DNA of 64,000 nt from Escherichia coli phage phiS. The notes below the pieces were generated by a model. That model saw only the letters and a list, made by a program, of their open reading frames with translations, did not search any database and was not told where the DNA came from. The stretch lies in sequence record PP449093.1; one strand, written 5' to 3'. Of this stretch, positions 4,341 to 46,622 are shown in pieces; within the stretch, counting starts at the first letter, position 1; the number at the start of each line of letters is the position of its first letter. Made by a program: the position numbers and the translations under genes.

Positions 4341-5165
4341 ATGAAATGGGAAATTGGTAAAACTTACACCTGGAAAGACGAAAACGCTAAAACTGAGTTT
4401 ATTACTAACGGAGAAGGTGTTCTTTCTCCACTTAACAGCGATATTAGTGCAGCTATTGGTGACACGCCATTTACCATCATCGAGATCGATGGCAACGGTT
4501 GGATTAATGCAATAGAGCTAGACGGTGTTTATCATACGGCGAAAACTGCTACAGGAAAAGACATTTGGACTGCAACATATTTCTTTAGTCCATTCGATAG
4601 AAAATTCTTTCGTGAAGTTGAAGAAGTTCCCCAGAAATGGGAAGTTGGTAAAACTTATACTTGGAAAGATGCGAATGCTATGACCGACTTCTGTCATTAT
4701 GCTGAAAACGTATCTAATCTTAATTATGTTATTGCACGAGCAATAAATTATAGACCTTTTACTGTTAAAAATGTTAGTCCATGTGGGCAAATTGATGTAA
4801 TTGAAATTGATGGTAAAGACCATACTCTAATGAGCGCAACCGAAGATAGAGACCATAAAGGAACTAGCTGGTTTATTGATTCTGATAGAAAATTCTTTCG
4901 TGAAGTAGAAGAATTGGAAGTTATAACCACTGATTCTAAAATCGTTGGACAGTTGAAACGTCTGTTTAGTAGTCGTTACGGCCTGACAATGGTTAAATTT
5001 GGCGAAGCAAATGAAGGTAAAACCTTTGAACGTTTCGATGACTTCATTACAGCACTTGACAAGATGGATGAAATCATGCAAGATCGCCAGAAGATTAAAG
5101 ACCTTCAAGAAGACATTAAACGTCGTGAAGTTGAATTTTTGATTGGTAAAGAGCGAGGTTGGTAA
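4341..5165 (+). CDS. Paralog family member 3, carrying two tandem copies of the domain
   Basis: MKWEIGKTYTWKD...FDRKFFREVEEV, then a second copy KWEVGKTYTWKD...SDRKFFREVEEL. Confidence 0.7.
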   Translation: MKWEIGKTYTWKDENAKTEFITNGEGVLSPLNSDISAAIGDTPFTIIEIDGNGWINAIELDGVYHTAKTATGKDIWTATYFFSPFDRKFFREVEEVPQKWEVGKTYTWKDANAMTDFCHYAENVSNLNYVIARAINYRPFTVKNVSPCGQIDVIEIDGKDHTLMSATEDRDHKGTSWFIDSDRKFFREVEELEVITTDSKIVGQLKRLFSSRYGLTMVKFGEANEGKTFERFDDFITALDKMDEIMQDRQKIKDLQEDIKRREVEFLIGKERGW

Positions 5166-6099: not shown

Positions 6100-6387
6100 A
6101 TGTTAGTACACAATGCAATCGCACACATGGTTTATTCTCGATTTGGGCGCAGGGAAGAAATCAATATTACCGACGCAGATTTAGATCTGATGCAAGTCGA
6201 AGGCCAGACATATCTGAAAAATAACGGCGTGAATATCGGTAAAGCGCGTGTGCGTGAATTGTTGGTTGAATATATTCTCTCTGAATTTGGCATTAGTGCT
6301 TTCGGTGTGAAAGAGCTTGCACCTAAGCGCGAAATTTCTGATAAAATGATCAAGAAATGCCAGAAAGCACGACGTAAGGGTTTCTAA
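6100..6387 (+). CDS. Hypothetical protein (95 aa)
   Basis: ATG at 6100 after GAGGAA. Confidence 0.5.
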   Translation: MLVHNAIAHMVYSRFGRREEINITDADLDLMQVEGQTYLKNNGVNIGKARVRELLVEYILSEFGISAFGVKELAPKREISDKMIKKCQKARRKGF

Positions 6388-9026: not shown

Positions 9027-9581
9027 ATGACAAAATTTAAGTATTGGGATGAAGAACTACAGAGTGAAATAAGGGATCATTTTGCCCATGACGAGAACGG
9101 CATACTCTATCACAAAACTCATAGTATTCATAAGGGTAAATTTGCACCTGGCGATATTGTCAAAACTCATGTAGGGTCACAAAGAGGACATTTATCTATT
9201 TGGTTATATCTAGGAAATGGTGTAAAATATAAATTGTATGTGCATAGGGTTGTTTGGTTTCTTGAGCATGGGTATCAGGTTGCTATAATCGACCATATAG
9301 ACCAAAATGTATTAAACAATGCACCAAGAAATTTAAGAGAAGCCACTAACCAAGAAAATAAAAGAAATCAGGGAAAGATCAAGAATGTAGGCGGAAGATA
9401 TAAGGGCGCATATCGTGCAAGTTCAGCTATGAAGTCTAAACCGTGGATATGTAAAGTCAGAATAGATGGGAAAACAAAACATTTTGGATATTTCGCGACA
9501 GAAGAAGAAGCGGCAAGAAAATATGATGAGGTGGCTAAGACTCTGTATGGAGAGTTTGCCGTTTTAAATTTTCCAGAATAA
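9027..9581 (+). CDS. HNH homing endonuclease with C-terminal AP2 DNA-binding domain (copy A)
   Basis: HNH core HRVVWFLEHGY...IDHIDQN...NLREAT..EN, then AP2-like GKTKHFGYFATEEEAARKYDEVAKTLYGEFAVLNF. It sits where T4 has alpha-gt. Confidence 0.8.
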   Translation: MTKFKYWDEELQSEIRDHFAHDENGILYHKTHSIHKGKFAPGDIVKTHVGSQRGHLSIWLYLGNGVKYKLYVHRVVWFLEHGYQVAIIDHIDQNVLNNAPRNLREATNQENKRNQGKIKNVGGRYKGAYRASSAMKSKPWICKVRIDGKTKHFGYFATEEEAARKYDEVAKTLYGEFAVLNFPE

Positions 9582-9600
9582 CTTTTAAGAGGATAATATT

Positions 9601-10626
9601 ATGAAAATTTTGATGTTGGGTGATTTGCACACTGGTATTGGTAATGATGATCCGTGGGTACATGACTATATTCTTGATACCATTAAAAAAGCACTAGATT
9701 ATTCTAAAAAACACAATATTAAGGTATGGATTCAGACAGGGGATTGGTTTGATTGCCGTAAAGCTATTACTCATGCGACGATGAGTTTTAACCGTACTAA
9801 GGTCATCCCGTTACTGGAAGAAGCTGGAATCACCTGTTATGTGACCGTAGGGAACCACGATCTATTCAAACGTCATAAGATCCAGCCTAACGCGCCGCGT
9901 GAAGTGTTAAGCCAGTATGATTGCATTAAGGTTATCGATAAACCAGAAACAGTTACCTTTGATGGGGTATCATTCGACCTGTTCCCGTGGTTTTGTGATG
10001 ACAATAAATCCGAGGTTTTAGAGTTTATTCAAAATTCATTCAGCGAATATTGTGTAGGCCATTGGGAATTGTCCGGCTACTATTTCTATAAAGGGTTAAA
10101 ATCCGAAGGTTATAGCGCGGACTTCCTCAAGAAATACCGTGAAGTGTTTTCCGGTCACTTTCATACTATCAGTGATGGCGGTAACGTAACGTATATTGGC
10201 ACACCATACACACTAACGGCTGGCGACGAAAATGATCCGCGTGGTTTTTGGGTATTCGATACAGATACACACAAAAAGGAGTTTATCCAGAATGACAAAA
10301 CTTATCATGTGCGTATCACTTACCCGTCAGATGATAAAATCGATGTAGAACGCTTTAAAGGGCTTAGTGTGCGCCTAATTGCAACGGTCGCTGATAATGG
10401 GTTAACTAAGTTAGAAAGCGCGTTAGAGGCCGTTGTACACAAGCTAAAAGTGGTCCATAAGCTGGAGAGTAGCGCATCACAGGAAACAGGTGTTATTGAA
10501 GTTAAAAGCACTATTCAGATGGTCTATGAATATCTGGAAGAACAAAACCTAGAACCGGAAGAACTTGCGGCAGTTAAGCGTATCTCCGATGAGCTTTTAG
10601 CCGAAGTAAATAGCGCAAAAAGTTAG
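9601..10626 (+). CDS. 47: Recombination endonuclease subunit gp47 (Mre11-like)
   Basis: MKILMLGDLHTG... and GNHD phosphoesterase motifs; upstream of gene 46 as in T4. Confidence 0.9.
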   Translation: MKILMLGDLHTGIGNDDPWVHDYILDTIKKALDYSKKHNIKVWIQTGDWFDCRKAITHATMSFNRTKVIPLLEEAGITCYVTVGNHDLFKRHKIQPNAPREVLSQYDCIKVIDKPETVTFDGVSFDLFPWFCDDNKSEVLEFIQNSFSEYCVGHWELSGYYFYKGLKSEGYSADFLKKYREVFSGHFHTISDGGNVTYIGTPYTLTAGDENDPRGFWVFDTDTHKKEFIQNDKTYHVRITYPSDDKIDVERFKGLSVRLIATVADNGLTKLESALEAVVHKLKVVHKLESSASQETGVIEVKSTIQMVYEYLEEQNLEPEELAAVKRISDELLAEVNSAKS

Positions 10627-17472: not shown

Positions 17473-17504
17473 GAGTGTCTTTCGTAAGTGAAGGAGTTTA
17501 TATT

Positions 17505-20183
17505 ATGTATTTTCTGTCATGTGAGCGAGTAGGTGATAAGATCTACGAGCGTTATATTGATGATGCTGGACAAGAGCAAGAGCGTTACGTTGAATATACG
17601 CCAACTTTATTTCATCATGCCGCGCCTGGTATGGTTACGAATTATAAAGATATCTATGGCAAGCCTTGCATTGCTAAAAAATTCCCATCTATGAACGAGG
17701 CCAACAAATGGCGTAAAAAGATGGGGGAGATGGGGCAAGAGGCACTAGGGATGGATGATTTTATCATCTCCTATCTGTCCGATACGTATAAAGGAGAGAT
17801 TCGATATGACCGAAATAAAATCCGTGTAGCATGGGTTGATATTGAGGTCACTGCACCTGAATTTCCTAAACCAGAAGAAGCGAAATATCCTATCGATGCA
17901 ATTACGCATTATGATTCCGTACATGATCGTTTCTTTGTATTTGATTTGAAAGGAAAGAACGGTGAAATCTGGGAAGCAAGCAAATCTATTCTTCGACCTG
18001 ATATTGTAGAGCGCGTTGTTTATAACGTCTATGATACAGAAGATGAATTGCTATTAGAATACATCCGATTCTTTGAGGAAAACCGACCAGTTGGCTTCAC
18101 TGGCTGGAACACAGAAACATTCGATATTCCATATATCATTAAGCGTATCAGTAATAAGTTTGGAAGTCGAACGGCAAACCGATTAAGCCCGTGCGGTAAG
18201 ATTAAATCCCGAATCTCACAGGATGATTTTGGCAACGAGCGTGAAGCATTTACGATCATGGGGATCGAAAGCCTTGATTATATTGACCTGTACAAGAAAT
18301 TTAGCTTTACGACTCAACCAACATATGCATTAGATTATGTTGCTGAATATGAGACAGGAATCGGTAAGGTTGATTATGATGGTCCATTAAAGAAATTGCG
18401 TGATGACAACCATCAACTTTACATCGATTATAACATCGGCGACGTTGACCGTGTGCTGGCGATTGATAAAAAGCGTGGTTTTATTGATCTGGTGTATAGC
18501 CTATGTTTCTATGCAAAGATTAAATTTAACCATGTTTATAATCCGATGAAAGTATGGGATGCTATTATCTTCGGATCTCTGAAAGCAGAGGGTAAAGTAG
18601 TACCGGAAAATAAGATACAGCCTAAGCAGACGTATCCAGGCGCATTTGTAAAAGAACCTGTGCCGAATGCTTACCGTTGGATGATGAGCTTCGATCTCAC
18701 GAGTTTGTATCCTTCAATAATTAGGCAGGTAAATATTTCACCCGAAACTATCGCTGGGTCTTTTGATGCTGCACCGATGCACGAGTATATCAATAAAACT
18801 GCACCACGTCCGAGTGATGAGTATTCTTGCTCGCCTAACGGATGGATGTATAGAAAAGATATTCATGGTATCGTACCGATTGAGATTAAAAAGGTATTCG
18901 ATCAGCGTAAGCAGTACAAAAACATGATGTTGGCATGTGATCGCAATGCTGAACTATGTAAAGCGATTCTACACGATGAAAATCATGTTTATGGGGGAAC
19001 CATTAGCTATAGCGTTGAAGTGCGTCACGACTTCGATGAAGCGTTTAAATCGATGCTTTCTGAATTAAGCAAAGATACCTTAGAGAAATTGCTGGAAGAA
19101 TGTAAAGACGAGTCGATCTTGTGCAATACAAACCAGCTTTCTCGAAAAGTTTTGATCAACTCCCTTTATGGTGCGTTGGGGAATCCTAAATTCCGTTTTT
19201 ATGATCTCCGTAACGCTAGTGCGATCACCTTGTTCGGTCAGCTTGCAATTCAGTGGATTGAGCGTAAGATTAACGAATACTTAAACGAGCTTTGCGGAAC
19301 AACCGATTTTGCATATGTTCGTTATTGTGATACTGACTCCGTTTATGTGCTGGTTAACAATGTTGTTGATAAGGTTGGCGGGGAAGATCGTTTCGACGAT
19401 ACCGAAAAACTTGTTGACTTCCTTGATAATTTCGGTAAACATCGGATGGAACCTATTATCGACAAGGGATATCGCGAGTTATGCGAGTACATGAATAACT
19501 ATGAGCACTTGATGTTTATGGACCGCGAGGCAATTGCTGGTCCTCCGTTGAAATCTGCGGGTATCGGTGGATTCTGGACTGGTAAAAAGCGTTATGCTCT
19601 TAATGTTTGGGATATGGAAGGAACGCGCTTTGCTGAACCTAAGCTAAAAATCATGGGCTTGGAAACGCAACGTAGCTCCACCCCGAAAGCATGTCAGAAA
19701 TCACTGAAAGAATGTATTCGCCGTATGTTGCAGGAAGGTGAAGAGTCATTGCAGGAATACTACGGTATTTTTGAGCAAGAATTTAGAAAACTTGACTATC
19801 TTGATGTTGCTGCGGTATCATCTGCAAACAACCTACAGAAATACAGCGATTCAAACGGGTATCCGATTAAGGGTTGTCCGTATGCGGTTAAGAGTGTATT
19901 GTGTTATAATCGTAATGCTCGAAAATTCGGACTAGATCCGATTCGTGAAGGCGAGAAGGTTATGATTGTACCGCTTAAAGATCGAAATCCGTTTGGAGAA
20001 ATCTGTTTTGGTTGGTTGTCCGGTACTCGTATTCCTCCAGAAATTGAATCAGAGGTGTTAAAGTGGTTAGACTGGCCTTTGTTGTTTAATAAGACTTTCG
20101 TCAAACCACTGGAGAACATTACAACGGCTGCAAAGCTGCAATATGAAAAAGTGGCATCTCTTACAGACCTGTTTGACATTTAA
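17505..20183 (+). CDS. 43: DNA polymerase gp43 (family B)
   Basis: ERYIDD...VEY.PT.F, exonuclease motifs and the YCDTDS polymerase motif. Start moved to ATG 17505 after RBS AAGGAG. Confidence 0.95.
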   Translation: MYFLSCERVGDKIYERYIDDAGQEQERYVEYTPTLFHHAAPGMVTNYKDIYGKPCIAKKFPSMNEANKWRKKMGEMGQEALGMDDFIISYLSDTYKGEIRYDRNKIRVAWVDIEVTAPEFPKPEEAKYPIDAITHYDSVHDRFFVFDLKGKNGEIWEASKSILRPDIVERVVYNVYDTEDELLLEYIRFFEENRPVGFTGWNTETFDIPYIIKRISNKFGSRTANRLSPCGKIKSRISQDDFGNEREAFTIMGIESLDYIDLYKKFSFTTQPTYALDYVAEYETGIGKVDYDGPLKKLRDDNHQLYIDYNIGDVDRVLAIDKKRGFIDLVYSLCFYAKIKFNHVYNPMKVWDAIIFGSLKAEGKVVPENKIQPKQTYPGAFVKEPVPNAYRWMMSFDLTSLYPSIIRQVNISPETIAGSFDAAPMHEYINKTAPRPSDEYSCSPNGWMYRKDIHGIVPIEIKKVFDQRKQYKNMMLACDRNAELCKAILHDENHVYGGTISYSVEVRHDFDEAFKSMLSELSKDTLEKLLEECKDESILCNTNQLSRKVLINSLYGALGNPKFRFYDLRNASAITLFGQLAIQWIERKINEYLNELCGTTDFAYVRYCDTDSVYVLVNNVVDKVGGEDRFDDTEKLVDFLDNFGKHRMEPIIDKGYRELCEYMNNYEHLMFMDREAIAGPPLKSAGIGGFWTGKKRYALNVWDMEGTRFAEPKLKIMGLETQRSSTPKACQKSLKECIRRMLQEGEESLQEYYGIFEQEFRKLDYLDVAAVSSANNLQKYSDSNGYPIKGCPYAVKSVLCYNRNARKFGLDPIREGEKVMIVPLKDRNPFGEICFGWLSGTRIPPEIESEVLKWLDWPLLFNKTFVKPLENITTAAKLQYEKVASLTDLFDI

Positions 20184-24924: not shown

Positions 24925-25953
24925 ATGATTTACTACGCAGATTATGAAATAGCGGAAAAAGCCATATATGGCGAACGAAATTTTAAACGGTTGCATACTA
25001 GCTCATTTACGCTGGTCTGTAGTTGTCCGATCTGCGGTGACTCAAAGAAAAATCATACTCAAGCGCGATTCCGTATCTATACCTATAAGGATAGTTTGCG
25101 AGCCGGATGTTTCAACTGTAACTACAATCAGCCGTTAGGTGAATTTCTTAAACAATATAAGCCGGACCTATTCAGGGAATGGCTTATGGAACGACGGAAG
25201 GAACAAGGAGATCACAAGAACACTACGTTCAAGCCACTGAAAAAGGTAGAAAAGCCGGAGATTAAGAAAGTGCAAACATTGCCTTTCTGCGAGAGGTTAG
25301 ATACTCTTCCGGCTAATCATCCTATAATAAAGTATGTCAGTGATCGTTGCATCCCTCACGATAAATGGGATCTTCTGTATTTCACGAGAGAATGGCAAAA
25401 GGTAGCAAATCACATTAAGGCTGATACTTTCAAGAATCCACAACCTGAACCGCGTTTAGTGATTCCTATCTTTAACCGCGAGAACAAGATAGAATCCATT
25501 CAGGGGCGAGCATTGAGAAAGGATTACGGAAAGACCAAATATATGACGATTAAAACTCACGAGTTAGCGAGTAAGGTCTATGGTCTTGAACGCGCCGATC
25601 CGAGTAAACCAGTGTATTTCTTAGAAGGTCCGATCGATTCATTGTTTATTGATAACGGGTGTGCAATTACTGGCGGTACGTTGGGATTAGATGAAATCCC
25701 TTTCCCAGACCAGCGAGTGTTTGTACTTGATGCGGAACCACGGTCTGCCGATACAATGCACCGACTGGAAAAGTTTATCAATGCAGGGGAAAAGATTGTA
25801 TTGTGGGACCGTTGCCCGTGGCATTCTAAAGACGTTAACGCCATGATTCAGGACGAGGGCGCTACACGCGACCAGATCATGGAATACATCAAAGAGAACA
25901 CCGTACAAGGTCTGATGGCTAAAATGCGGTTTATGAAATATTGTAAATTTTAA
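24925..25953 (+). CDS. 61: DNA primase gp61
   Basis: Zn-ribbon CSCPICGDSKKN...CFNCNYN and toprim-like C-terminus; ...EGATRDQIMEYIKENTVQGLMAKMR matches T4 gp61 as I recall it. Confidence 0.9.
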   Translation: MIYYADYEIAEKAIYGERNFKRLHTSSFTLVCSCPICGDSKKNHTQARFRIYTYKDSLRAGCFNCNYNQPLGEFLKQYKPDLFREWLMERRKEQGDHKNTTFKPLKKVEKPEIKKVQTLPFCERLDTLPANHPIIKYVSDRCIPHDKWDLLYFTREWQKVANHIKADTFKNPQPEPRLVIPIFNRENKIESIQGRALRKDYGKTKYMTIKTHELASKVYGLERADPSKPVYFLEGPIDSLFIDNGCAITGGTLGLDEIPFPDQRVFVLDAEPRSADTMHRLEKFINAGEKIVLWDRCPWHSKDVNAMIQDEGATRDQIMEYIKENTVQGLMAKMRFMKYCKF

Positions 25954-25970
25954 TTAATGAGGGTTGTATT

Positions 25971-26534
25971 GTGAGGGTAAGGAAAGCCAAAGAATGGAGA
26001 GATGAATTAAAGGATGAAATACGTCGAAGATATAGACACGAAAGGGGTATATTGATTCATAAAACAAACAGCAAAGCAAGCCGAACGACGAAAGAAGGCC
26101 AGTTTTATAAGGTTGGTGATATAGTAAAGGTATCTAAAGTCACAGCCGGACACCTAAAAGTCTCATTTTCTTTTGAAGGAAAACAATATTTTGAGCTTGT
26201 GCATAGAATAGTATTCTTCTTAGAGCATGGGTATTGCCCACCTGTCATTGACCATATTGACGGGAATCCAGAAAACAACGATCCTCCAAACTTAAGAGAG
26301 GCGACACAAAAACAGAATACCCAAAATATGAGAAGAAATAACCAAACTAAAACTAGCAATTTTAAAGGAGTGCATTATAATAGTCGTTCGGGTAAATGGG
26401 TCGCCCAGATAAGGGACAATGAAGGAAATAAAGTCTATATAGGACAATTTGACCTAGAAATAGACGCCGCAATAGTATATAATGACTATGCGTATAAGTA
26501 TCACGGTGAATTTGCAGTGTTTAATGTTATTTGA
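25971..26534 (+). CDS. HNH homing endonuclease with AP2 domain (copy B)
   Basis: VHRIVFFLEHGY...IDHIDGNPENN...NLREAT, then AP2-like KGVHYN...GKWVAQI...YIGQFDLEIDAAIVYNDYAYKYHGEFA. GTG start. Confidence 0.8.
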   Translation: MRVRKAKEWRDELKDEIRRRYRHERGILIHKTNSKASRTTKEGQFYKVGDIVKVSKVTAGHLKVSFSFEGKQYFELVHRIVFFLEHGYCPPVIDHIDGNPENNDPPNLREATQKQNTQNMRRNNQTKTSNFKGVHYNSRSGKWVAQIRDNEGNKVYIGQFDLEIDAAIVYNDYAYKYHGEFAVFNVI

Positions 26535-26544
26535 GAGGTTTATT

Positions 26545-27063
26545 ATGAGTGAATTTAATTCTTGTGCTGGTCTTGTTAATGATGAAACTATGTCTAAAGC
26601 TGGTATTGCGTATTCCGAGGCAATCACTAGCGGTAAAGATCCGCTGCAAGTAATGTTAGATATGCAAAAAGGATTGCAGGTCGCACTAGCTGATAAATTT
26701 GAGTGGGTAATGCATCCTGATAAGCTGGAAACTTGCGGGGAGATCCTTGACTGGATGAAGTTGTGGGATGACGCAATCGACGACGAGACACGAGAACTTT
26801 ATGTTGCCCTGGGTGGCATGTCAAATGGCAAAGATGCAAGCGCAATTACTAAAGTGTGGAAGAAGAACCACGGCGAAGCACGAGCGCGTAAATTTGCTGA
26901 TCTGTCAGATGACGATAAAACCGAAATTGCGATGGAATTGATCGATATCTGGCATTTTGTGCTGATTAAAATGCTGGGCTTAGGTTTAACCGCTAAGGAT
27001 ATCTTCAAGCTGTACTATCTGAAAAATGCTGAAAACTTCGCCCGTCAAGAACGCGGCTACTAA
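26545..27063 (+). CDS. 56: MazG-like nucleotide pyrophosphohydrolase, probable gp56 dCTPase homolog
   Basis: PLQVMLDMQ...HPDKLET...FKLYYLKNAENFARQERGY fits my recollection of T4 gp56. Position between 61 and dda. Confidence 0.6.
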   Translation: MSEFNSCAGLVNDETMSKAGIAYSEAITSGKDPLQVMLDMQKGLQVALADKFEWVMHPDKLETCGEILDWMKLWDDAIDDETRELYVALGGMSNGKDASAITKVWKKNHGEARARKFADLSDDDKTEIAMELIDIWHFVLIKMLGLGLTAKDIFKLYYLKNAENFARQERGY

Positions 27064-31251: not shown

Positions 31252-31425
31252 ATGCCATTATACGATTATTCTTGTGAAGAACACGGTCAATTTCAGAAAA
31301 TCCGCAAAATTTCCGAGCGTGAAAAGGCAGAATGCCCTGAATGCGGTAAAGAATGCAAACAGGGATTGACTGCCCCGCGCGGGATTAATGGCGGGTACTA
31401 TGATAAAAATGTGCGCGTGTCATGA
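31252..31425 (+). CDS. Zinc-ribbon protein (57 aa)
   Basis: CEEHG ... CPECGKEC, two CxxC pairs (FmdB-like). Confidence 0.5.
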   Translation: MPLYDYSCEEHGQFQKIRKISEREKAECPECGKECKQGLTAPRGINGGYYDKNVRVS

Positions 31426-31531
31426 GTCATATACTTGACAATCACTCAATTTTTAATATGATTGTTGCAGCCGTCTTTGTGGCGGTTGCAGTAAGTTATG
31501 GTTATGTTATGAGCAAAATTAAGGTTTAGCT

Positions 31532-32071
31532 ATGGGCGATTTGGAATTATATGAATATCTCCACGAAAGATACTACTACGAAAACGGTAGGCTATTTTTC
31601 AAAAAGGATTTAAAGAATCAGATTAAAGCTGGCGATGAAGCCGGAAACCAATTGACAAAATATGCCGAGGATGGCAGTATCATGTGGAGTCGATGGGTCA
31701 TGAAGGTCAACCGAAAACATTTTTATCGGGCGACCGTTATATGGGTGATGTTTAACAAACAATTACCGCCTAAAGGTTTTGAGGTCGACCATATTGACAG
31801 AAACTCATTAAATGATAAAATAGAAAACCTTCGATTGGTGACTCGAACCAACAACGTAAGAAACCGAGGGAAGATGAGAAAGAATCCTTCGTCAAAATAT
31901 ATTGGCGTTTGTTGGAACAAGTCACATAAGAAATGGGTTGCTAGGATAGGTGGTTATAAGCGCGTATACTTAGGATCATTTAAAGACGAAAAAGAGGCTG
32001 CATTGGCCTATGATAAAGCCGTTAAAGAACTTCATGGAGAATTTGCGGTTTTAAATTTCCCAAATGACTGA
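31532..32071 (+). CDS. HNH homing endonuclease with AP2 domain (copy C)
   Basis: VDHIDRNSLNDKIENLRLVTRTNN, then AP2-like YIGVCWNKSHKKWVARIGG...YLGSFKDEKEAALAYDKAVKELHGEFAVLNF. Confidence 0.8.
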   Translation: MGDLELYEYLHERYYYENGRLFFKKDLKNQIKAGDEAGNQLTKYAEDGSIMWSRWVMKVNRKHFYRATVIWVMFNKQLPPKGFEVDHIDRNSLNDKIENLRLVTRTNNVRNRGKMRKNPSSKYIGVCWNKSHKKWVARIGGYKRVYLGSFKDEKEAALAYDKAVKELHGEFAVLNFPND

Positions 32072-32088
32072 TAAATGAGGAAAATATT

Positions 32089-33912
32089 ATGACAGATTTT
32101 TTGATCCTTTCAGATAGGGAACATGTGATTCGCAGACCTCATATGTACGTGGGGAGCACAACGTATGAGGCTCAAAAACGCTTTTTGTTTGGTAAATGGC
32201 AGTCTGTATCATACGTTCCCGGACTAGTTAAAATCATTGATGAGATCATCGACAACTCTGTAGACGAGGCGATTCGCACTAATTTTGAATTTGCCAATGT
32301 GATTAGCGTCGATATCCAAAACAATATTGTTACGGTAACAGACAACGGTCGCGGTATTCCTCAACATATGGTTACTACACCAGAGGGCACGCAGATTCCG
32401 CAACCTGTAGCCGCATGGACACGAACAAAAGCAGGGTCTAACTTTGATGATACCAATCGATTAACGCAAGGGATGAACGGTGTTGGGTCGTCGTTGTCAA
32501 ATTTCTTTAGCGATTGGTTTACTGGTGTGACCTGTGACGGTGAAACAGAAATGACCGTTCAATGCACAAACGGTGCTGAAAATATCACATGGTCATCAAA
32601 ACCATCAAAATTGAAGGGAACGAAGGTTACATTTTGTCCAGACTTCGACCACTTCGAAGGTTATATGATGGACAACTCTGTTTTAGATATTGTTCATGAT
32701 CGTCTGCAATCATTGAGCGTAATCTTTCCTAAGATCACGTTTAAGTTTAATGGTAAACGTATTGTTAGTAAGTTCAAGGATTATGCTAAACTATACAATG
32801 ATGATCCGTTTGTCATTGAAGATAAAAACTTCTCACTTGCCCTAGTTCCTGCGGTCGAGGGAGAAGGTTTTAAATCAGTATCCTTTGCTAATGGTCTGTT
32901 TACCAAAAACGGGGGAACACACGTAGACTACGTGACAGATGATCTTTGTGAAGAGATTGTAAAACGAATCAAGAAAGAATATAAGGTTGATGTTACTAAA
33001 GCTGCGGTTAAGTCTGGATTGACCTGTATTCTTATTGTTCGTGAATTGCCAAACCTCCGTTTTGATTCACAGACAAAAGAACGATTGACTAATCCAACTG
33101 GTGATATCAAGCGTCATATTGATCTTGATTTTAAAAAGCTGGCTAAAGTCATTGCGAAGAAAGAAAACATTATCATGCCTATTATTGCTGTAGTCCTGGC
33201 ACGCAAAGAGGCAGCAGATAAAGCGGCAGCGACTAAGGCAGCAAAGGCAGCAAAACGGGCTAAGGTAGCAAAACACGTTAAAGCTAACCTTATTGGAACT
33301 GACGCAGAAACTACCCTGTTTTTGACGGAAGGTGATTCCGCGATCAACTATCTGATCTCTGTACGTGATCAAGATTTACATGGAGGTTTCCCGTTGCGAG
33401 GCAAAACTCTTACAACGTGGGAACAACCGGAGGCAAAGATCGTTAAGAACGCCGAAATTTTTAACATCATGGCGATCACTGGCTTGCAATTTGGTGTTGA
33501 TGCATTGGAAGTTATGCAATACAAAAATATTGCGATTATGACCGACGCTGATACTGACGGGATCGGGTCTATTAAACCTAGTCTGATCTCTTTCTTTGCA
33601 CGTTGGCCTGAATTGTTCGAAGATGGACGAATCCGGTTTATCAAAACACCTATTATCATTGCTGAACCAAAGAAAGGTGATGATGTTCGATGGTATTATG
33701 ACCTAGAAGAGTTCGAGAACGACCGAGATAATATCAAAGGTTACAACATTCGATATATCAAAGGTTTAGCATCGCTCACAGAATCAGACTATCATCGCGT
33801 GATCAACGATCCTGTCATGGAGATCATCACGTTACCGGAAAACTATAAAGAGCTATTCGATTTGCTCTATAGTGAAGATGCAGATCAGCGCAAAATTTGG
33901 ATGCAATCATAA
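32089..33912 (+). CDS. 39: DNA topoisomerase II large subunit (GyrB-like), 39 and 60 fused in one ORF
   Basis: GHKL ATPase motifs (IDNSVDE, DNGRGIP, GMNGVGSS) and a C-terminal toprim region (TEGDSA, IMTDADTDG) in one 607-aa frame. Confidence 0.9.
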   Translation: MTDFLILSDREHVIRRPHMYVGSTTYEAQKRFLFGKWQSVSYVPGLVKIIDEIIDNSVDEAIRTNFEFANVISVDIQNNIVTVTDNGRGIPQHMVTTPEGTQIPQPVAAWTRTKAGSNFDDTNRLTQGMNGVGSSLSNFFSDWFTGVTCDGETEMTVQCTNGAENITWSSKPSKLKGTKVTFCPDFDHFEGYMMDNSVLDIVHDRLQSLSVIFPKITFKFNGKRIVSKFKDYAKLYNDDPFVIEDKNFSLALVPAVEGEGFKSVSFANGLFTKNGGTHVDYVTDDLCEEIVKRIKKEYKVDVTKAAVKSGLTCILIVRELPNLRFDSQTKERLTNPTGDIKRHIDLDFKKLAKVIAKKENIIMPIIAVVLARKEAADKAAATKAAKAAKRAKVAKHVKANLIGTDAETTLFLTEGDSAINYLISVRDQDLHGGFPLRGKTLTTWEQPEAKIVKNAEIFNIMAITGLQFGVDALEVMQYKNIAIMTDADTDGIGSIKPSLISFFARWPELFEDGRIRFIKTPIIIAEPKKGDDVRWYYDLEEFENDRDNIKGYNIRYIKGLASLTESDYHRVINDPVMEIITLPENYKELFDLLYSEDADQRKIWMQS

Positions 33913-33915
33913 CAC

Positions 33916-33963
33916 TTGACATACAAGGGAGATTCTCTATAATGGGAGTCTCCCTTTTCTTTT
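33916..33963 (+). promoter_or_regulatory. Promoter-stem-loop cassette: TTGACA, TATAAT inside a hairpin loop, then a T-run (terminator-like)
   Basis: cttgacatacaa-gggagattc-tctataatgg-gagtctccc-ttttctttt; the 9-bp stem encloses the -10. Confidence 0.5.
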
Positions 33964-33977
33964 ATGAGGATTTAATA

Positions 33978-34277
33978 ATGAGCAAAAAGAATAACATGAT
34001 GATGAGTATGGCAAAGTTCATGGAAGCAGACCTGATCAAAAATACAGTACAGCATGAACGCCAGCGCGAAGCCGCAGTGATTGCAGAACAAGGTTTTCAG
34101 GTTATCCGCAATCCACCTAAAGACACGGTTAAATCGAAATACAGAGACGATCTGAAAGACCATGAAGTACGGGAACTGGTTAATGATCTGCGTGACATTG
34201 CCATCAAATATCATGGTTATCAGTGCTTACGAGAACTGATCGCAGAGCGAGTAATGGACGCACTGAAAAAAGATTAA
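33978..34277 (+). CDS. Hypothetical protein (99 aa)
   Basis: ATG after GAGGA. Confidence 0.5.
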   Translation: MSKKNNMMMSMAKFMEADLIKNTVQHERQREAAVIAEQGFQVIRNPPKDTVKSKYRDDLKDHEVRELVNDLRDIAIKYHGYQCLRELIAERVMDALKKD

Positions 34278-34284
34278 AAATCTG

Positions 34285-34313
34285 TTGACACTGGATCGGG
34301 GATATATCATAAT
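34285..34313 (+). promoter_or_regulatory. Early promoter with hairpin spanning the -10 (TTGACA ... CATAAT)
   Basis: ttgaca-ctggatc-ggggatatatcataatgtcccc. Confidence 0.45.
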
Positions 34314-34343
34314 GTCCCCATCAAAAACAAAAGGTTGACTTAT

Positions 34344-34538
34344 ATGAAACCGTTTAAGAATGAAGAAACTCAAAAATTTTGTGAAAAAATTGCAGAAATC
34401 TACTTGACAGGGGATAAGGAAAAAGCTAATATTATGTTCAAAGAGTCGGTTTCCATGATGAAAGTAGCACGCTGGGAACTGATCGCAATGCAAGACCAAA
34501 TTCGTTATCTAGTAACAAAGGAGAATCAAAATGCGTAA
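34344..34538 (+). CDS. Hypothetical protein (64 aa)
   Basis: ORF from the track; its 3' end overlaps the start of the interrupted ORF. Confidence 0.4.
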   Translation: MKPFKNEETQKFCEKIAEIYLTGDKEKANIMFKESVSMMKVARWELIAMQDQIRYLVTKENQNA

Positions 34539-39026: not shown

Positions 39027-39389
39027 ATGCTAGGTCATTCTAAAATAGAAGATTGCTCATTCAGAGCAATGAAAGATGATTTTTCAGTCCTGTACGCGTC
39101 TATCCGAGAGTTGTTTGTAGATTTTAAGCAATTCAGAGAATACAAAGGCGTTAAGATGCGGGAGTGGGTATTCTGGCCTTTCTATATCATTACTCTGTTT
39201 TCTATGGTATTTTGTTTTGTCGGGATCACGATCGCTAGCTTTGTTACTTGCGCTTTCCTGATTATCCGGTGTATCATGTTTGCTTTGATTGCTGCCCCGT
39301 TTATTGTTTCAATCCTTCCGTTAAAATGGCTATTGGATTGGGCTGATAAATCTGATAAAGTAAAGAATGTGATTTGTAAGCGTGTATGA
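39027..39389 (+). CDS. Integral membrane protein (120 aa); possible ac counterpart by position
   Basis: Two or three hydrophobic helices (FYIITLFSMVFCFVGITIASFVTCAFLII, ALIAAPFIVSILPL); directly upstream of gene 52. Confidence 0.5.
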   Translation: MLGHSKIEDCSFRAMKDDFSVLYASIRELFVDFKQFREYKGVKMREWVFWPFYIITLFSMVFCFVGITIASFVTCAFLIIRCIMFALIAAPFIVSILPLKWLLDWADKSDKVKNVICKRV

Positions 39390-39396
39390 GGTGAAG

Positions 39397-40743
39397 ATGA
39401 ATAAATCAGTTACTTACCGTAGCCTTGAAAGCATTGTACATAATGAAGCTAAGGAATATGCGATCTATTCTGCCGAGGAACGCGGGATTCCTCAATTAGT
39501 TGATGGTCTTAAACCAGTGCAACGCTTTGTTATGGAATGTGCTTTGCAAAAGAGTAAAGGCGACCGTAAGAAATTCCGTAAGATGGCAGATATTGGATCT
39601 GGTGTTGCTGAGTTGGGTTATCACCACGGGGAAACTAATGCCGTAGAAGCCGGATCACTCATGGCGAATACATGGAGCAATAATACTCCACTGCTTGATG
39701 GTCAAGGTAACTTCGGATCGCGTTTAGTCCAGAAAGCAGGTGCGGCACGTTATATCTTTGCTCGTGTGCATGAAAACTTCTTTAAAATCTATAAAGATAT
39801 GAATTGCGCACCTAAGCACGAAGATCTGGAACACATCCCGCCAGCGTTCTACTTGCCAGTTGTTCCAATGGTATTGGCTAACGGTATTAGTGGTATTGCT
39901 ACAGGGTATAAAACTGACATTTTACCGCATTCACTGGAAAGCCTTATTGAATGCACAGAGCTAGCACTTGCCGGAAAACTGGATAAAGAACCTAGTGTTC
40001 AATTCCCGAAATTCACGGGTAAAGTTATCCCACGAGATGATCGCGATGGTGTGATTCTTGAGGGTACATATGAACTAAACGGCAAGACTAAACTGACAAT
40101 ATCAGAAGTTCCTTATAAGTTCGACCGTGAAGAATATGTAGCGGTACTGGATGCACTGGAAGAAAAAGATCTGATTGTCTCATATAATGACCGTTGCTCT
40201 AAGGACGGATTCAGATTTGAAGTAACACTGAAACGCGATTATTTCAAAAGCGAAGATGAATCCGCTCGACATGAGCAGATCATGAAGGATTTTAAACTAA
40301 CGCAGTTAGTAGCACAGAATATCGTAGTGGTTAATGAACGTGGTTTAGTCGAAGTATTCGAGAAAGCGAGCGATCTGATCCGTCGATTCGTCGAAATCCG
40401 CTTAGGCTATATAGACAAACGCATTGAATTGATGCAAGCGGAAACGCTAGAAGCATACAATTATGCAATGGCTAAAGCCGAATTTATCGACCGCGTAATT
40501 AAGGGCGAAATCGAGCTACAGGGCAAGAAAAAGGCCGAGGTAATGCAATCCATCAATGGACATGAAAAACTGCGTCCATACGCCGATAAGCTAGTTTCTA
40601 TGCCATTGTATAGCGTTACTCAAGAAGAGTATGAACGACTGGTCAAAGATGCCGATAAACATCATAGTGAATATGAGTATTGGACAAAGACGACCGCAAT
40701 GAAGGAATATAAGAAAGATCTTAAAGAACTTAAGAAGGGTTGA
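39397..40743 (+). CDS. 52: DNA topoisomerase II medium subunit gp52 (GyrA-like)
   Basis: DGLKPVQRF, GYHHGE, LLDGQGNFGSR and RYIFARV match T4 gp52 as I recall it. Confidence 0.9.
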   Translation: MNKSVTYRSLESIVHNEAKEYAIYSAEERGIPQLVDGLKPVQRFVMECALQKSKGDRKKFRKMADIGSGVAELGYHHGETNAVEAGSLMANTWSNNTPLLDGQGNFGSRLVQKAGAARYIFARVHENFFKIYKDMNCAPKHEDLEHIPPAFYLPVVPMVLANGISGIATGYKTDILPHSLESLIECTELALAGKLDKEPSVQFPKFTGKVIPRDDRDGVILEGTYELNGKTKLTISEVPYKFDREEYVAVLDALEEKDLIVSYNDRCSKDGFRFEVTLKRDYFKSEDESARHEQIMKDFKLTQLVAQNIVVVNERGLVEVFEKASDLIRRFVEIRLGYIDKRIELMQAETLEAYNYAMAKAEFIDRVIKGEIELQGKKKAEVMQSINGHEKLRPYADKLVSMPLYSVTQEEYERLVKDADKHHSEYEYWTKTTAMKEYKKDLKELKKG

Positions 40744-46558: not shown

Positions 46559-46622
46559 AGCCGTTTCTCCTTAGTAGTTTCCCTTCCGTGGGAGTTTTCC
46601 TTAATTCTTTTTATAATTAAGT

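Follow-up and report, generated by a model that had tools for sequence, protein, structure and literature searches.

In bacteriophage T4 the large subunit of DNA topoisomerase II is made as two proteins, gp39 and gp60, from a gene that is split by the MobA insertion and its bypass. The MobA cassette consists of an HNH endonuclease gene and a recoded copy ("HomR") of the topoisomerase sequence that the enzyme targets (Manning and Atkins 2022, and Bonocora 2011 as described in later papers). In published work the unsplit gene is the usual form, from which the MobA-bearing one derives, and the insertion was mapped with parental genomes that are 96–99% identical to the split ones; its published limits run from aa 466–473 to D490/G491. 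The gp39 of T2/T6 is unsplit and forms a two-subunit enzyme with gp52, for which structures have been solved (PDB 8ylu and related; Nat Commun 2024, PMC11461880). The records of RB49 and phi1 already annotate the unsplit state as "60+39", and the RB68 record does likewise as "60plus39". T4 also contains free-standing Seg and Mob endonucleases, which move by intron-less homing (review PMC2988022), and HNH-AP2 genes have been counted previously in RB49, JSE, RB43 and RB16.

The locus described here lies in a 64,000-nucleotide stretch of Escherichia coli phage phiS (PP449093.1), hereafter the window. The genome is a Krischvirus, an RB49-like T4-type coliphage, at 98–99% DNA identity. The topoisomerase large subunit gene, equivalent to T4 genes 39 and 60 together, is present in one piece on the plus strand (32089..33912) as an ATG-initiated ORF of 607 residues, with a GAGG Shine-Dalgarno sequence 9 nt 5' of the ATG. 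The unsplit gene is already known, and the sole fresh point at this locus is an endonuclease cassette upstream of it. With a probability of about 0.9, we read the locus as a one-piece ancestral gene for the ATPase/Toprim subunit, preceded by an HNH-AP2 cassette for which intron-less homing is the most likely mode of spread.

The 607-residue product is covered from residue 3 to 606 by phrog_543, "DNA topoisomerase II large subunit" (PHROG, E 1e-251), and an exact-sequence look-up with the protein found no identical entry on record. A GHKL ATPase domain occupies residues 45–186 (32221..32646, plus strand; Pfam HATPase_c, E 5.8e-9, 36.8 bits against a cut-off of 26.4). The sequences DEIIDNSVDE (51–60), DNGRGIP (85–91) and GMNGVGSS (128–135) are found in the product, and the N-box, G1 and G2 motifs of the GHKL (Bergerat) ATP-binding fold are all present. 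Next comes a transducer domain (residues 259–383, 32863..33237, plus strand; Pfam DNA_gyraseB, E 5.4e-17), whose QTK loop reads QTKERL (328–333). The Toprim domain (residues 409–518, 33313..33642, plus strand) contains the catalytic glutamate motif TEGDSA (413–418), PLRGK (435–439) and the acidic DxDxD motif in MTDADTDG (484–491). Its Pfam score of 21.2 bits is just below the cut-off of 23.1, yet the domain was accepted because the motifs and a structural homologue cover the region. The C-terminal Toprim-associated domain (residues 519–606, 33643..33906, plus strand) passes its cut-off (Pfam TOPRIM_C, E 3.9e-7). The structural homologue is the solved, unsplit T6 gp39 (PDB 8ylu_C), which matches residues 3–606 in one collinear stretch (E 1e-230). 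An artificial T4 gp39-gp60 fusion aligns to the same structure as two stretches, whereas the window protein aligns as one. The initial annotation placed a GHKL ATPase and a Toprim region in a single product, and the domains, motifs and PDB match agree with this.

A partner subunit is encoded in the same genome at 39382..40743 on the plus strand (ORF limits, start unrefined), equivalent to T4 gene 52 and similar to the GyrA/ParC breakage-reunion subunits (Pfam DNA_topoisoIV, E 4.9e-69). With GHKL, transducer and Toprim domains and a same-genome partner, the product falls among the ATPase/Toprim subunits of type IIA topoisomerases (GyrB/ParE/phage gp39 family). Judged from the homologous topoisomerase II of T2/T6, the gp39-like product and the gp52-like subunit would assemble into an A2B2 enzyme. 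At a catalytic centre composed of Toprim and winged-helix domains, this enzyme would break both DNA strands transiently and, using ATP bound by the GHKL domain, drive one duplex through the gap. ATP-dependent strand passage is predicted for the product from its approximately 57% identity to the characterised T4/T6 enzymes. The T2/T6 type belongs to a different genus; for the unsplit Tequatrovirus protein of RB68, rather than for T6 gp39 itself, the identity to the window protein is 57.6%.

BLASTP aligns residues 6–474 of the window protein with residues 8–475 of T4 gp39 (57% identity) and residues 476–605 with residues 31–158 of T4 gp60 (55% identity, E 9e-50). These end points locate the junction at residues 474–476 (33508–33516, plus strand). 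The two halves bear out the statement of the initial annotation that one gene encodes without interruption what T4 makes as gp39 and gp60, and the C-terminal 150 residues are indeed related to gp60. The T4 split falls inside the Toprim domain: TEGDSA and PLRGK align to gp39, and the counterparts of MTDADTDG and of the C-terminal tail are in gp60, the DxDxD stretch corresponding to its HomR segment. The description of gp60 as the Toprim region therefore applies to the DxDxD half of the domain and the C-terminal tail, but not to the TEGDSA and PLRGK motifs, which sit in gp39.

MobA insertions in T4-type phages fall in a zone that corresponds here to residues 466–491 (33484..33561, plus strand), where BLASTP and a four-way alignment show an unbroken frame. 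The codon for Gly-491 is GGG, followed in frame by ATC GGG TCT; the T4-type GGA-UAG take-off is absent, and there is no 50-nt coding gap after Gly-491. In the same comparisons no mobA gene or relic was found between the gp39- and gp60-like halves, and there is no sequence at this position that could hold one. In T4 the split is accompanied by an extension of about 41 residues at the C terminus of gp39 (476–516), a 30-residue extension at the N terminus of gp60 (1–30), mobA and a stop/gap, all of which are missing from the window. Neither extension has a counterpart in the window protein or in RB68, and both are therefore taken to be element-derived. Apart from one indel of 1 aa, every residue of the junction has a partner in RB68, and there is no additional segment. 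The family for gp60 exon 1, phrog_19082, matches the window protein at residues 476–491 only, which correspond to HomR positions 30–45 of that family. None of the four characteristics of a T4-type split gene with MobA and bypass was found in the window gene, and the MobA/bypass site is free of insertion or leftover element sequence.

The unbroken junction is widespread. Of 1946 phage records, 1870 (96%) carry a 96-aa segment across it without interruption, all 58 Krischvirus records match it at 95% identity or more, and 30 of 30 among the Krischvirus matches listed align without a break. Cellular and eukaryotic homologues also match through this stretch in one piece. The one-piece gene is the ancestral norm in T4-type phages, and gene 60 was never separated from gene 39 here. 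The term "fused 39+60" in the initial annotation is accordingly a misnomer, given the 1870 uninterrupted records and a literature in which the unsplit gene is parental. That the gene might be a derived fusion, or else hold special information on how the T4 split and hop arose, is very improbable. The end-to-end alignment of the halves with gp39 and gp60 and the T4-centred label "60+39" do invite the idea of a fusion, but the prevalence of the unsplit form, the element-derived additions of T4 that are missing here and in RB68, and the homologues from cells and eukaryotes that cross the junction intact all argue against it. For tracing how the T4 split originated, the gene is of low value as a reference. 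The window gene is only 50–57% identical to the T4 parts, whereas RB68 is approximately 86–93% identical to them; RB68, T2 and T6 are published unsplit references closer to T4, have been used already, and the insertion has been mapped. The chance that a former MobA/bypass insertion was excised and a single ORF restored is close to negligible. Such a hit-and-run event has been proposed in the literature for some Aeromonas phages, but those published cases retain approximately 70 residues of element-derived CTE/NTE, and the window junction has no extra segment, matches phrog_19082 over HomR positions 30–45 only and is shared by the Krischvirus records in unbroken form. As originally stated, the finding of an unsplit gene matters little, as this state is the rule in T4-type phages, is annotated in near-identical relatives and has been analysed in print.

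Directly upstream, on the plus strand at 31532..32071, is a free-standing gene for a 179-aa HNH-AP2 homing endonuclease. The protein contains HNH_3 at residues 69–110 (Pfam, E 9.4e-13, 48 bits against a cut-off of 24.8) and AP2 at residues 121–169 (Pfam, E 1.5e-11, 44.8 bits against a cut-off of 33.3), and it matches phrog_99, "HNH endonuclease" (E 1.2e-50). An intact HNH motif, an AP2 module, polymorphism at the locus and a co-inherited divergent flank were all found, as expected of an HNH-AP2 homing cassette. The cassette is present in 0 of the 58 deposited Krischvirus genomes, a sensitive search included. No relative of the gene was found at the DNA level in deposited phages, where the closest protein is 40% identical. 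A large protein collection holds one nearby cluster (98% identity), and all others are at 59% or less. At least 23 metagenome contigs encode the exact protein at this site, and at least 24 carry the cassette there; the arrangement was found in contigs from at least nine independent samples.

The inferred mobile cassette is 696 nt long (31513..32208, plus strand), delimited by a sharp left break and by low diversity relative to its flanks. It comprises the endonuclease ORF with its ribosome-binding site, 17 nt of spacer in which gene 39 has a new Shine-Dalgarno sequence, and a recoded start of gene 39. Compared with RB49 and ELT4, the left break is at 31512|31513. RB49 gene 39 also encodes 607 residues, as does phi1 "60+39", and the RB49 protein is 97% identical; dda, dexA and 39.2 lie upstream and rIIA downstream in the same way. 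In RB49 there is no endonuclease gene upstream, and 12 nt separate the shared sequence from the start codon of gene 39. The recoded patch covers codons 1–40 (32089..32208, plus strand). Against ELT4, the closest isolate, 53 of its 120 nt differ (55.8% identity), in contrast to 7 of the 1692 nt in the remainder of gene 39 (99.6% identity). At the protein level, 14 of the 15 differences from ELT4 are within the first 40 residues (Fisher p 4e-17), as are 14 of the 17 differences from RB49. A 48-nt stretch of the patch includes a SNP that is private to the window.

Base-by-base comparison of nine carriers and four endonuclease-free sequences revealed perfect linkage between the patch haplotype and the endonuclease gene. 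Among the nine carriers the cassette has 0.72 segregating sites per 100 nt (5 in 696 nt), tenfold fewer than the 7.1–7.6 of the flanks, so that an almost invariant cassette sits on diverse backbones. The window backbone is nearest to that of the endonuclease-free ELT4 (6 mismatches), and any other carrier differs by at least 20. This population pattern is a direct observation; a near-invariant cassette on divergent backbones, one of which is nearest an endonuclease-free isolate, indicates recent spread as a unit. The right-hand boundary is essentially identical in all nine carriers, with variation only at 32220 and 32226. Repeated homing would be better supported if the co-conversion end points were widely scattered instead of shared.

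A donor phage for the patch, or a copy of the patch without the endonuclease gene, was sought with blastn, tblastn, IMG/VR and metagenome contigs, and none was found. At distant sensitivity, all that blastn with 32075–32230 matched was ordinary Krischvirus genes, at 71%. In tblastn with the first 53 residues, the top full-length match listed was a Krischvirus sequence at 73.6%, and two records at 80–90% identity stand outside the matches listed. An exact 54-mer of the patch had no match in IMG/VR and occurs in one metagenome contig, on which the endonuclease gene is also present.

Taken as a sequence-based prediction, the cassette is probably an actively homing element, and as such it adds a new member to a kind already known. 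It would have docked between the early promoter of gene 39 and the start codon, bringing with it the divergent first 120 nt or so. In a mixed infection the enzyme would nick or cut the allele that lacks the endonuclease gene, within or close to the beginning of gene 39; divergence and linkage mark codons 1–40 as the predicted target position in endonuclease-free phages. Repair would then copy the cassette from the carrier genome, which makes intron-less homing the most likely mechanism, and the recoded patch would shield the carrier from its own enzyme. We lean towards the fuller picture of an active element that is spreading in wild Krischvirus, uncaptured in deposited isolates, and that replaces approximately 40 codons with a self-immune version while the gene stays whole.

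The endonuclease gene and the patch could also have been acquired from a diverged phage by recombination, whether ordinary or mediated by PeSLs, and be inherited passively, the enzyme being inactive or irrelevant. A PeSL-like promoter and stem-loop 18 nt left of the cassette boundary would suit such an exchange, PeSLs having been proposed as recombination sites in RB49 and phi1, and activity of the endonuclease is a prediction from its amino acid sequence. We regard this origin as unlikely, since the right boundary lies inside gene 39 and has no PeSL, the ORF is intact and has the low diversity of the cassette (5 sites, against approximately 7 per 100 nt in the backbones), the window backbone is nearest an endonuclease-free isolate, and both HNH_3 and AP2 score well above their cut-offs.

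The cassette that is proposed here to home resembles the MobA element: both pair an HNH-family nuclease gene with a diverged copy that replaces a portion of the host gene, and the host gene is the same in the two cases. It differs in its HNH subfamily, which carries AP2, in its position at the 5' edge of the gene and not inside Toprim, in the absence of an ORF split and of bypass, and in that its nuclease is a predicted one. JSE, W115 and L005 have another HNH-AP2 gene, distinct from this one, immediately against the 3' end of the topoisomerase gene, together with a recoded terminal patch. The JSE/W115 gene is free-standing, encodes 187 residues and lies directly downstream of the topoisomerase gene, of which the last 33 nt or so are recoded. 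Its product is 46% identical to the window enzyme over the C-terminal 97 residues, and the gene is absent from the window. As with the free-standing Seg and Mob genes of T4, the window gene is intergenic, sits beside a conserved DNA-metabolism gene, has no obvious promoter between itself and the promoter of the host gene, and is sporadic among close relatives and co-inherited with flanking sequence. An AP2 domain is found in the window enzyme but in none of the free-standing T4 enzymes.

If the homing interpretation is correct, the Krischvirus topoisomerase gene is, together with the 3' HNH-AP2 gene of JSE/W115, a two-ended docking site for homing endonucleases. The cassette would then invade the same essential gene as MobA by a gentler route, offering a comparison for why MobA needed a split and a bypass. 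It is one more case of a selfish nuclease gene that carries a recoded copy of its presumed target, beside a gene famous for such invasion, and should be useful but not surprising to specialists in homing endonucleases. Crosses in which a phage with the cassette is the donor and RB49 or ELT4 the recipient would provide a simple experimental system for homing, for the HNH-AP2 target and for invasion strategies.

The order dda-dexA-39.2-39-...-rIIA is the same as in RB49 and T4. On the plus strand, 5' of the cassette, a consensus scan found an early-promoter-like site (TTGACA-16-TATGAT) followed by a stem-loop (31435..31494), which is identical in RB49, common to endonuclease-free relatives and similar in architecture to the published PeSLs of RB49 and phi1. 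We considered and rejected an origin of the cassette by PeSL-mediated shuffling alone, as a PeSL is missing at the right boundary and the cassette is near-invariant. The same scan revealed a sigma-70-like promoter with a perfect 12/12 match, overlapping a stem-loop, directly 3' of the topoisomerase stop codon (33916..33956, plus strand).

The topoisomerase large-subunit gene (window 32089–33912, + strand) starts with ATG and encodes a protein of 607 residues. Pfam places HATPase_c at residues 45–186, DNA_gyraseB (the transducer) at residues 259–383, Toprim at residues 409–518 (21.2 bits, just under the cut-off of 23.1) and TOPRIM_C at residues 519–606. All seven diagnostic motifs sought are present: DEIIDNSVDE (residues 51–60), DNGRGIP (85–91), GMNGVGSS (128–135), QTKERL (328–333), TEGDSA (413–418), PLRGK (435–439) and MTDADTDG (484–491). 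PHROG family 543, "DNA topoisomerase II large subunit," matches residues 3–606 with an E value of 1e-251. The partner subunit, equivalent to T4 gene 52, is encoded at 39382–40743 (DNA_topoisoIV, E 4.9e-69). The topoisomerase region is 98–99% identical in DNA sequence to that of Krischvirus phages (58 records in all), with 99.3% for ELT4 and 98.2% for RB49. The gene order, dda, two small ORFs, dexA, 39.2, the topoisomerase gene, four small ORFs and rIIA, agrees with that of RB49 and, more loosely, with that of T4.

For comparison, T4 gp39 (516 residues) and gp60 (160 residues, with the 50-nt gap taken out) were reconstructed from NC_000866. By BLASTP, residues 6–474 of the window protein correspond to gp39 residues 8–475 with 57% identity, and residues 476–605 correspond to gp60 residues 31–158 with 55% identity (E 9e-50). 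The two alignments meet at residues 474–476 (nucleotides 33508–33516), which places the junction that the initial annotation had proposed to locate in this way. No counterpart of T4 gp39 residues 476–516 or gp60 residues 1–30 was found in the aligned window protein, and the same holds in a comparison with RB68, a Tequatrovirus in which the gene is unsplit and annotated "60plus39." Of PHROG 19082, whose 45 positions represent gp60 up to the take-off codon, only positions 30–45 match the window protein (residues 476–491), and the reading frame is unbroken at Gly-491 (GGG, then ATC GGG TCT). The solved, unsplit T6 gp39 (Protein Data Bank code 8ylu_C) matches residues 3–606 in a single stretch (E 1e-230), whereas an engineered T4 gp39-gp60 fusion (8yo3_C) matches only as two stretches. 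The ORF, the Pfam domains, the motifs, PHROG 543 and the two BLASTP halves bear out the initial annotation of an unsplit counterpart of T4 genes 39 and 60. Because residues 476–605 are gp60-like and the match to T6 gp39 is collinear, the possibility that the C-terminal 150 residues are unrelated to gp60 falls away. The equation of gp60 with "the toprim region" is incorrect: the T4 split point lies inside Toprim, with the catalytic Glu and the RGK motif on the gp39 side and the DxDxD cluster and C-terminal tail on the gp60 side.

A 96-residue segment spanning the junction was traced in 1946 phage records and scored as uninterrupted when at least 80% was found in one place. It is uninterrupted in 1870 of these records and matches all 58 Krischvirus records at 95% identity or more. 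The gene is also unbroken at the junction in all eight metagenomic relatives examined, and the six contigs with the whole gene contain the full 607-residue ORF. In the published analysis of the insertion, the MobA element entered an unsplit parental gene between residues 466–473 and D490/G491, bringing about 44 residues to each new end as well as a recoded "HomR" and the bypass; the parental genomes used there share 96–99% identity with their split counterparts (Manning and Atkins, bioRxiv 10.1101/2022.08.31.505936). The window gene is thus not a fusion of genes 39 and 60, as the term "fused" had implied, since the junction segment is uninterrupted in most phage records and the unsplit gene is the parent in published work. 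It is also ill suited to tracing how the T4 split came about, a use that had been suggested for it: it is 50–57% identical to the T4 gp39 and gp60 parts, whereas much closer unsplit relatives exist, such as the RB68 protein with about 86–93%. The unsplit state is already known, because the RB49 GenBank note reads [quoted passage not shown] the phi1 record labels the gene "60+39," and the published analysis contains closer parental genomes. What is described here is an ordinary gene in its ancestral, unsplit form, which annotations and publications already cover.

The only addition to the known picture is an HNH-AP2 cassette with a recoded 5' patch, situated upstream. Alignments to the 58 Krischvirus records each span only 77% of window 31400–34400, as two pieces, and the cassette portion is absent from all 58 deposited genomes, even by sensitive search. 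In the alignment the window follows RB49 and ELT4 up to 31512 and then breaks, and identity returns only about 120 nt into the topoisomerase gene. The cassette (31513–32208, 696 nt) comprises a ribosome-binding site, an endonuclease ORF, a spacer of 17 nt that holds a new GAGG for gene 39, and the recoded start of gene 39. The ORF (31532–32071) encodes 179 residues with HNH_3 (E 9.4e-13) and AP2 (E 1.5e-11) domains and matches phrog_99, "HNH endonuclease" (E 1.2e-50). Compared with ELT4, 53 of the first 120 nt of gene 39 differ (55.8% identity), against 7 of the remaining 1692 nt (99.6%). Among the first 44 codons 34 are altered, 20 synonymously and 14 nonsynonymously, and 14 of the 15 amino acid differences from ELT4 fall within the first 40 residues (Fisher p 4e-17).

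The exact 179-residue protein is present in 35 blocks of a public assembly collection. In each of the eight contigs examined, the endonuclease gene is flanked by 39.2 and the topoisomerase gene, and a ninth contig, retrieved with a patch-specific 54-mer, also carries it. Overall, the cassette occupies the same site, nearly invariant, in at least 24 metagenome contigs, of which nine were examined base by base. Among nine carriers of the endonuclease gene, the cassette has 5 segregating sites in 696 nt (0.72 per 100 nt), compared with 71 in 931 nt upstream and 117 in 1643 nt of the rest of gene 39 (7.1–7.6 per 100 nt). Two discrete haplotypes of the patch occur, in perfect linkage with the endonuclease gene: carriers differ from one another at no more than 1 position and non-carriers at no more than 3, but 49–53 differences separate the groups. 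The gene 39 backbone of the window is nearest to endonuclease-free ELT4 (6 mismatches), and every other carrier differs from it at 20 or more positions.

These sequence patterns suggest that the cassette travels as one piece, and they are the expected signature of a spreading free-standing homing endonuclease. Spread would proceed by double-strand-break repair, co-converting a flank that contains and disables the enzyme's own target. The main alternative is PeSL recombination, with the promoter and stem-loop beside the cassette acting as a recombination site. An early-promoter-like site with a stem-loop, identified by consensus match only and common to RB49, lies just left of the cassette at 31435–31494 and is similar to the PeSL motifs, for which a role as recombination sites has been proposed in RB49 and phi1 (PMC2839356), but the right boundary of the cassette lies within gene 39, where there is no PeSL-like motif. 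The endonuclease gene would then be transcribed from this putative promoter, that of the topoisomerase gene itself, in agreement with the description of many free-standing T4 endonuclease genes as promoter-less cassettes (PMC2988022). A second promoter-like site, again a consensus match only, is found within the endonuclease ORF (31794–31821). Similar promoter-like hexamers with a stem-loop (12/12 consensus), also resembling the RB49/phi1 PeSL motifs (PMC2839356), occur at 33916–33956.

HNH-AP2 homing endonuclease genes have already been counted in RB49, JSE, RB43 and RB16 (PMC2993671). Among deposited phage proteins the nearest to the cassette endonuclease shares only 40% identity with it, and a collection of 5.8 billion proteins contains a single close cluster (98% identity). 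The cassette is thus a new representative of a familiar class, and so far it is found only in metagenome assemblies and the window. It is a modest, clean example of a homing endonuclease adjoining the gene best known for such invasion.

A different HNH-AP2 gene, encoding 187 residues, directly follows the topoisomerase stop codon in JSE (L012 1220–1783), W115 (L011 1400–1963) and a metagenome contig (L005 6383–6946). Its product is 46% identical to the window enzyme, in the C-terminal half only. It is always accompanied by recoding at the very end of the topoisomerase gene, over about 33 nt (...SEDSDMRKAWMAS instead of ...SEDADQRKIWMQS), and the gene would thus offer docking sites at both ends. 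The window lacks the downstream gene and has the endonuclease-free 3' end. In another contig (L007, about 6345–6381) the topoisomerase gene has yet another, third 3' end (...SEDSDRRKAWMQS) and is not followed by an endonuclease gene; this sequence could be a resistant allele or else the trace of a loss.

Elsewhere in the window, an HNH endonuclease ORF of 184 residues (9027–9581; insertion 9039–9587 relative to ELT4), which shares about 48% identity with the enzyme encoded downstream of the JSE topoisomerase gene, lies directly upstream of a gene-47-like ORF (9601–10626). An HNH-AP2 ORF of 187 residues (25971–26534; insertion 25963–26550) lies directly downstream of a primase-like ORF (24925–25953). 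Both sites are empty in ELT4. A single ORF of 902 residues (17475–20183) stands where ELT4 has DNA polymerase genes; ELT4 has an additional 1.13 kb there (L015 20409–21539), and its polymerase is annotated as two parts separated by an ORF. About 250–290 nt near 4626–4878, within ORF 4341–5165, have no ELT4 counterpart. Megablast similarity to ELT4 ends at 46613, at the point where tail-fibre genes are annotated in ELT4, and from 46614 onward the window genes are on the - strand; the GC skew changes sign at about 46000.
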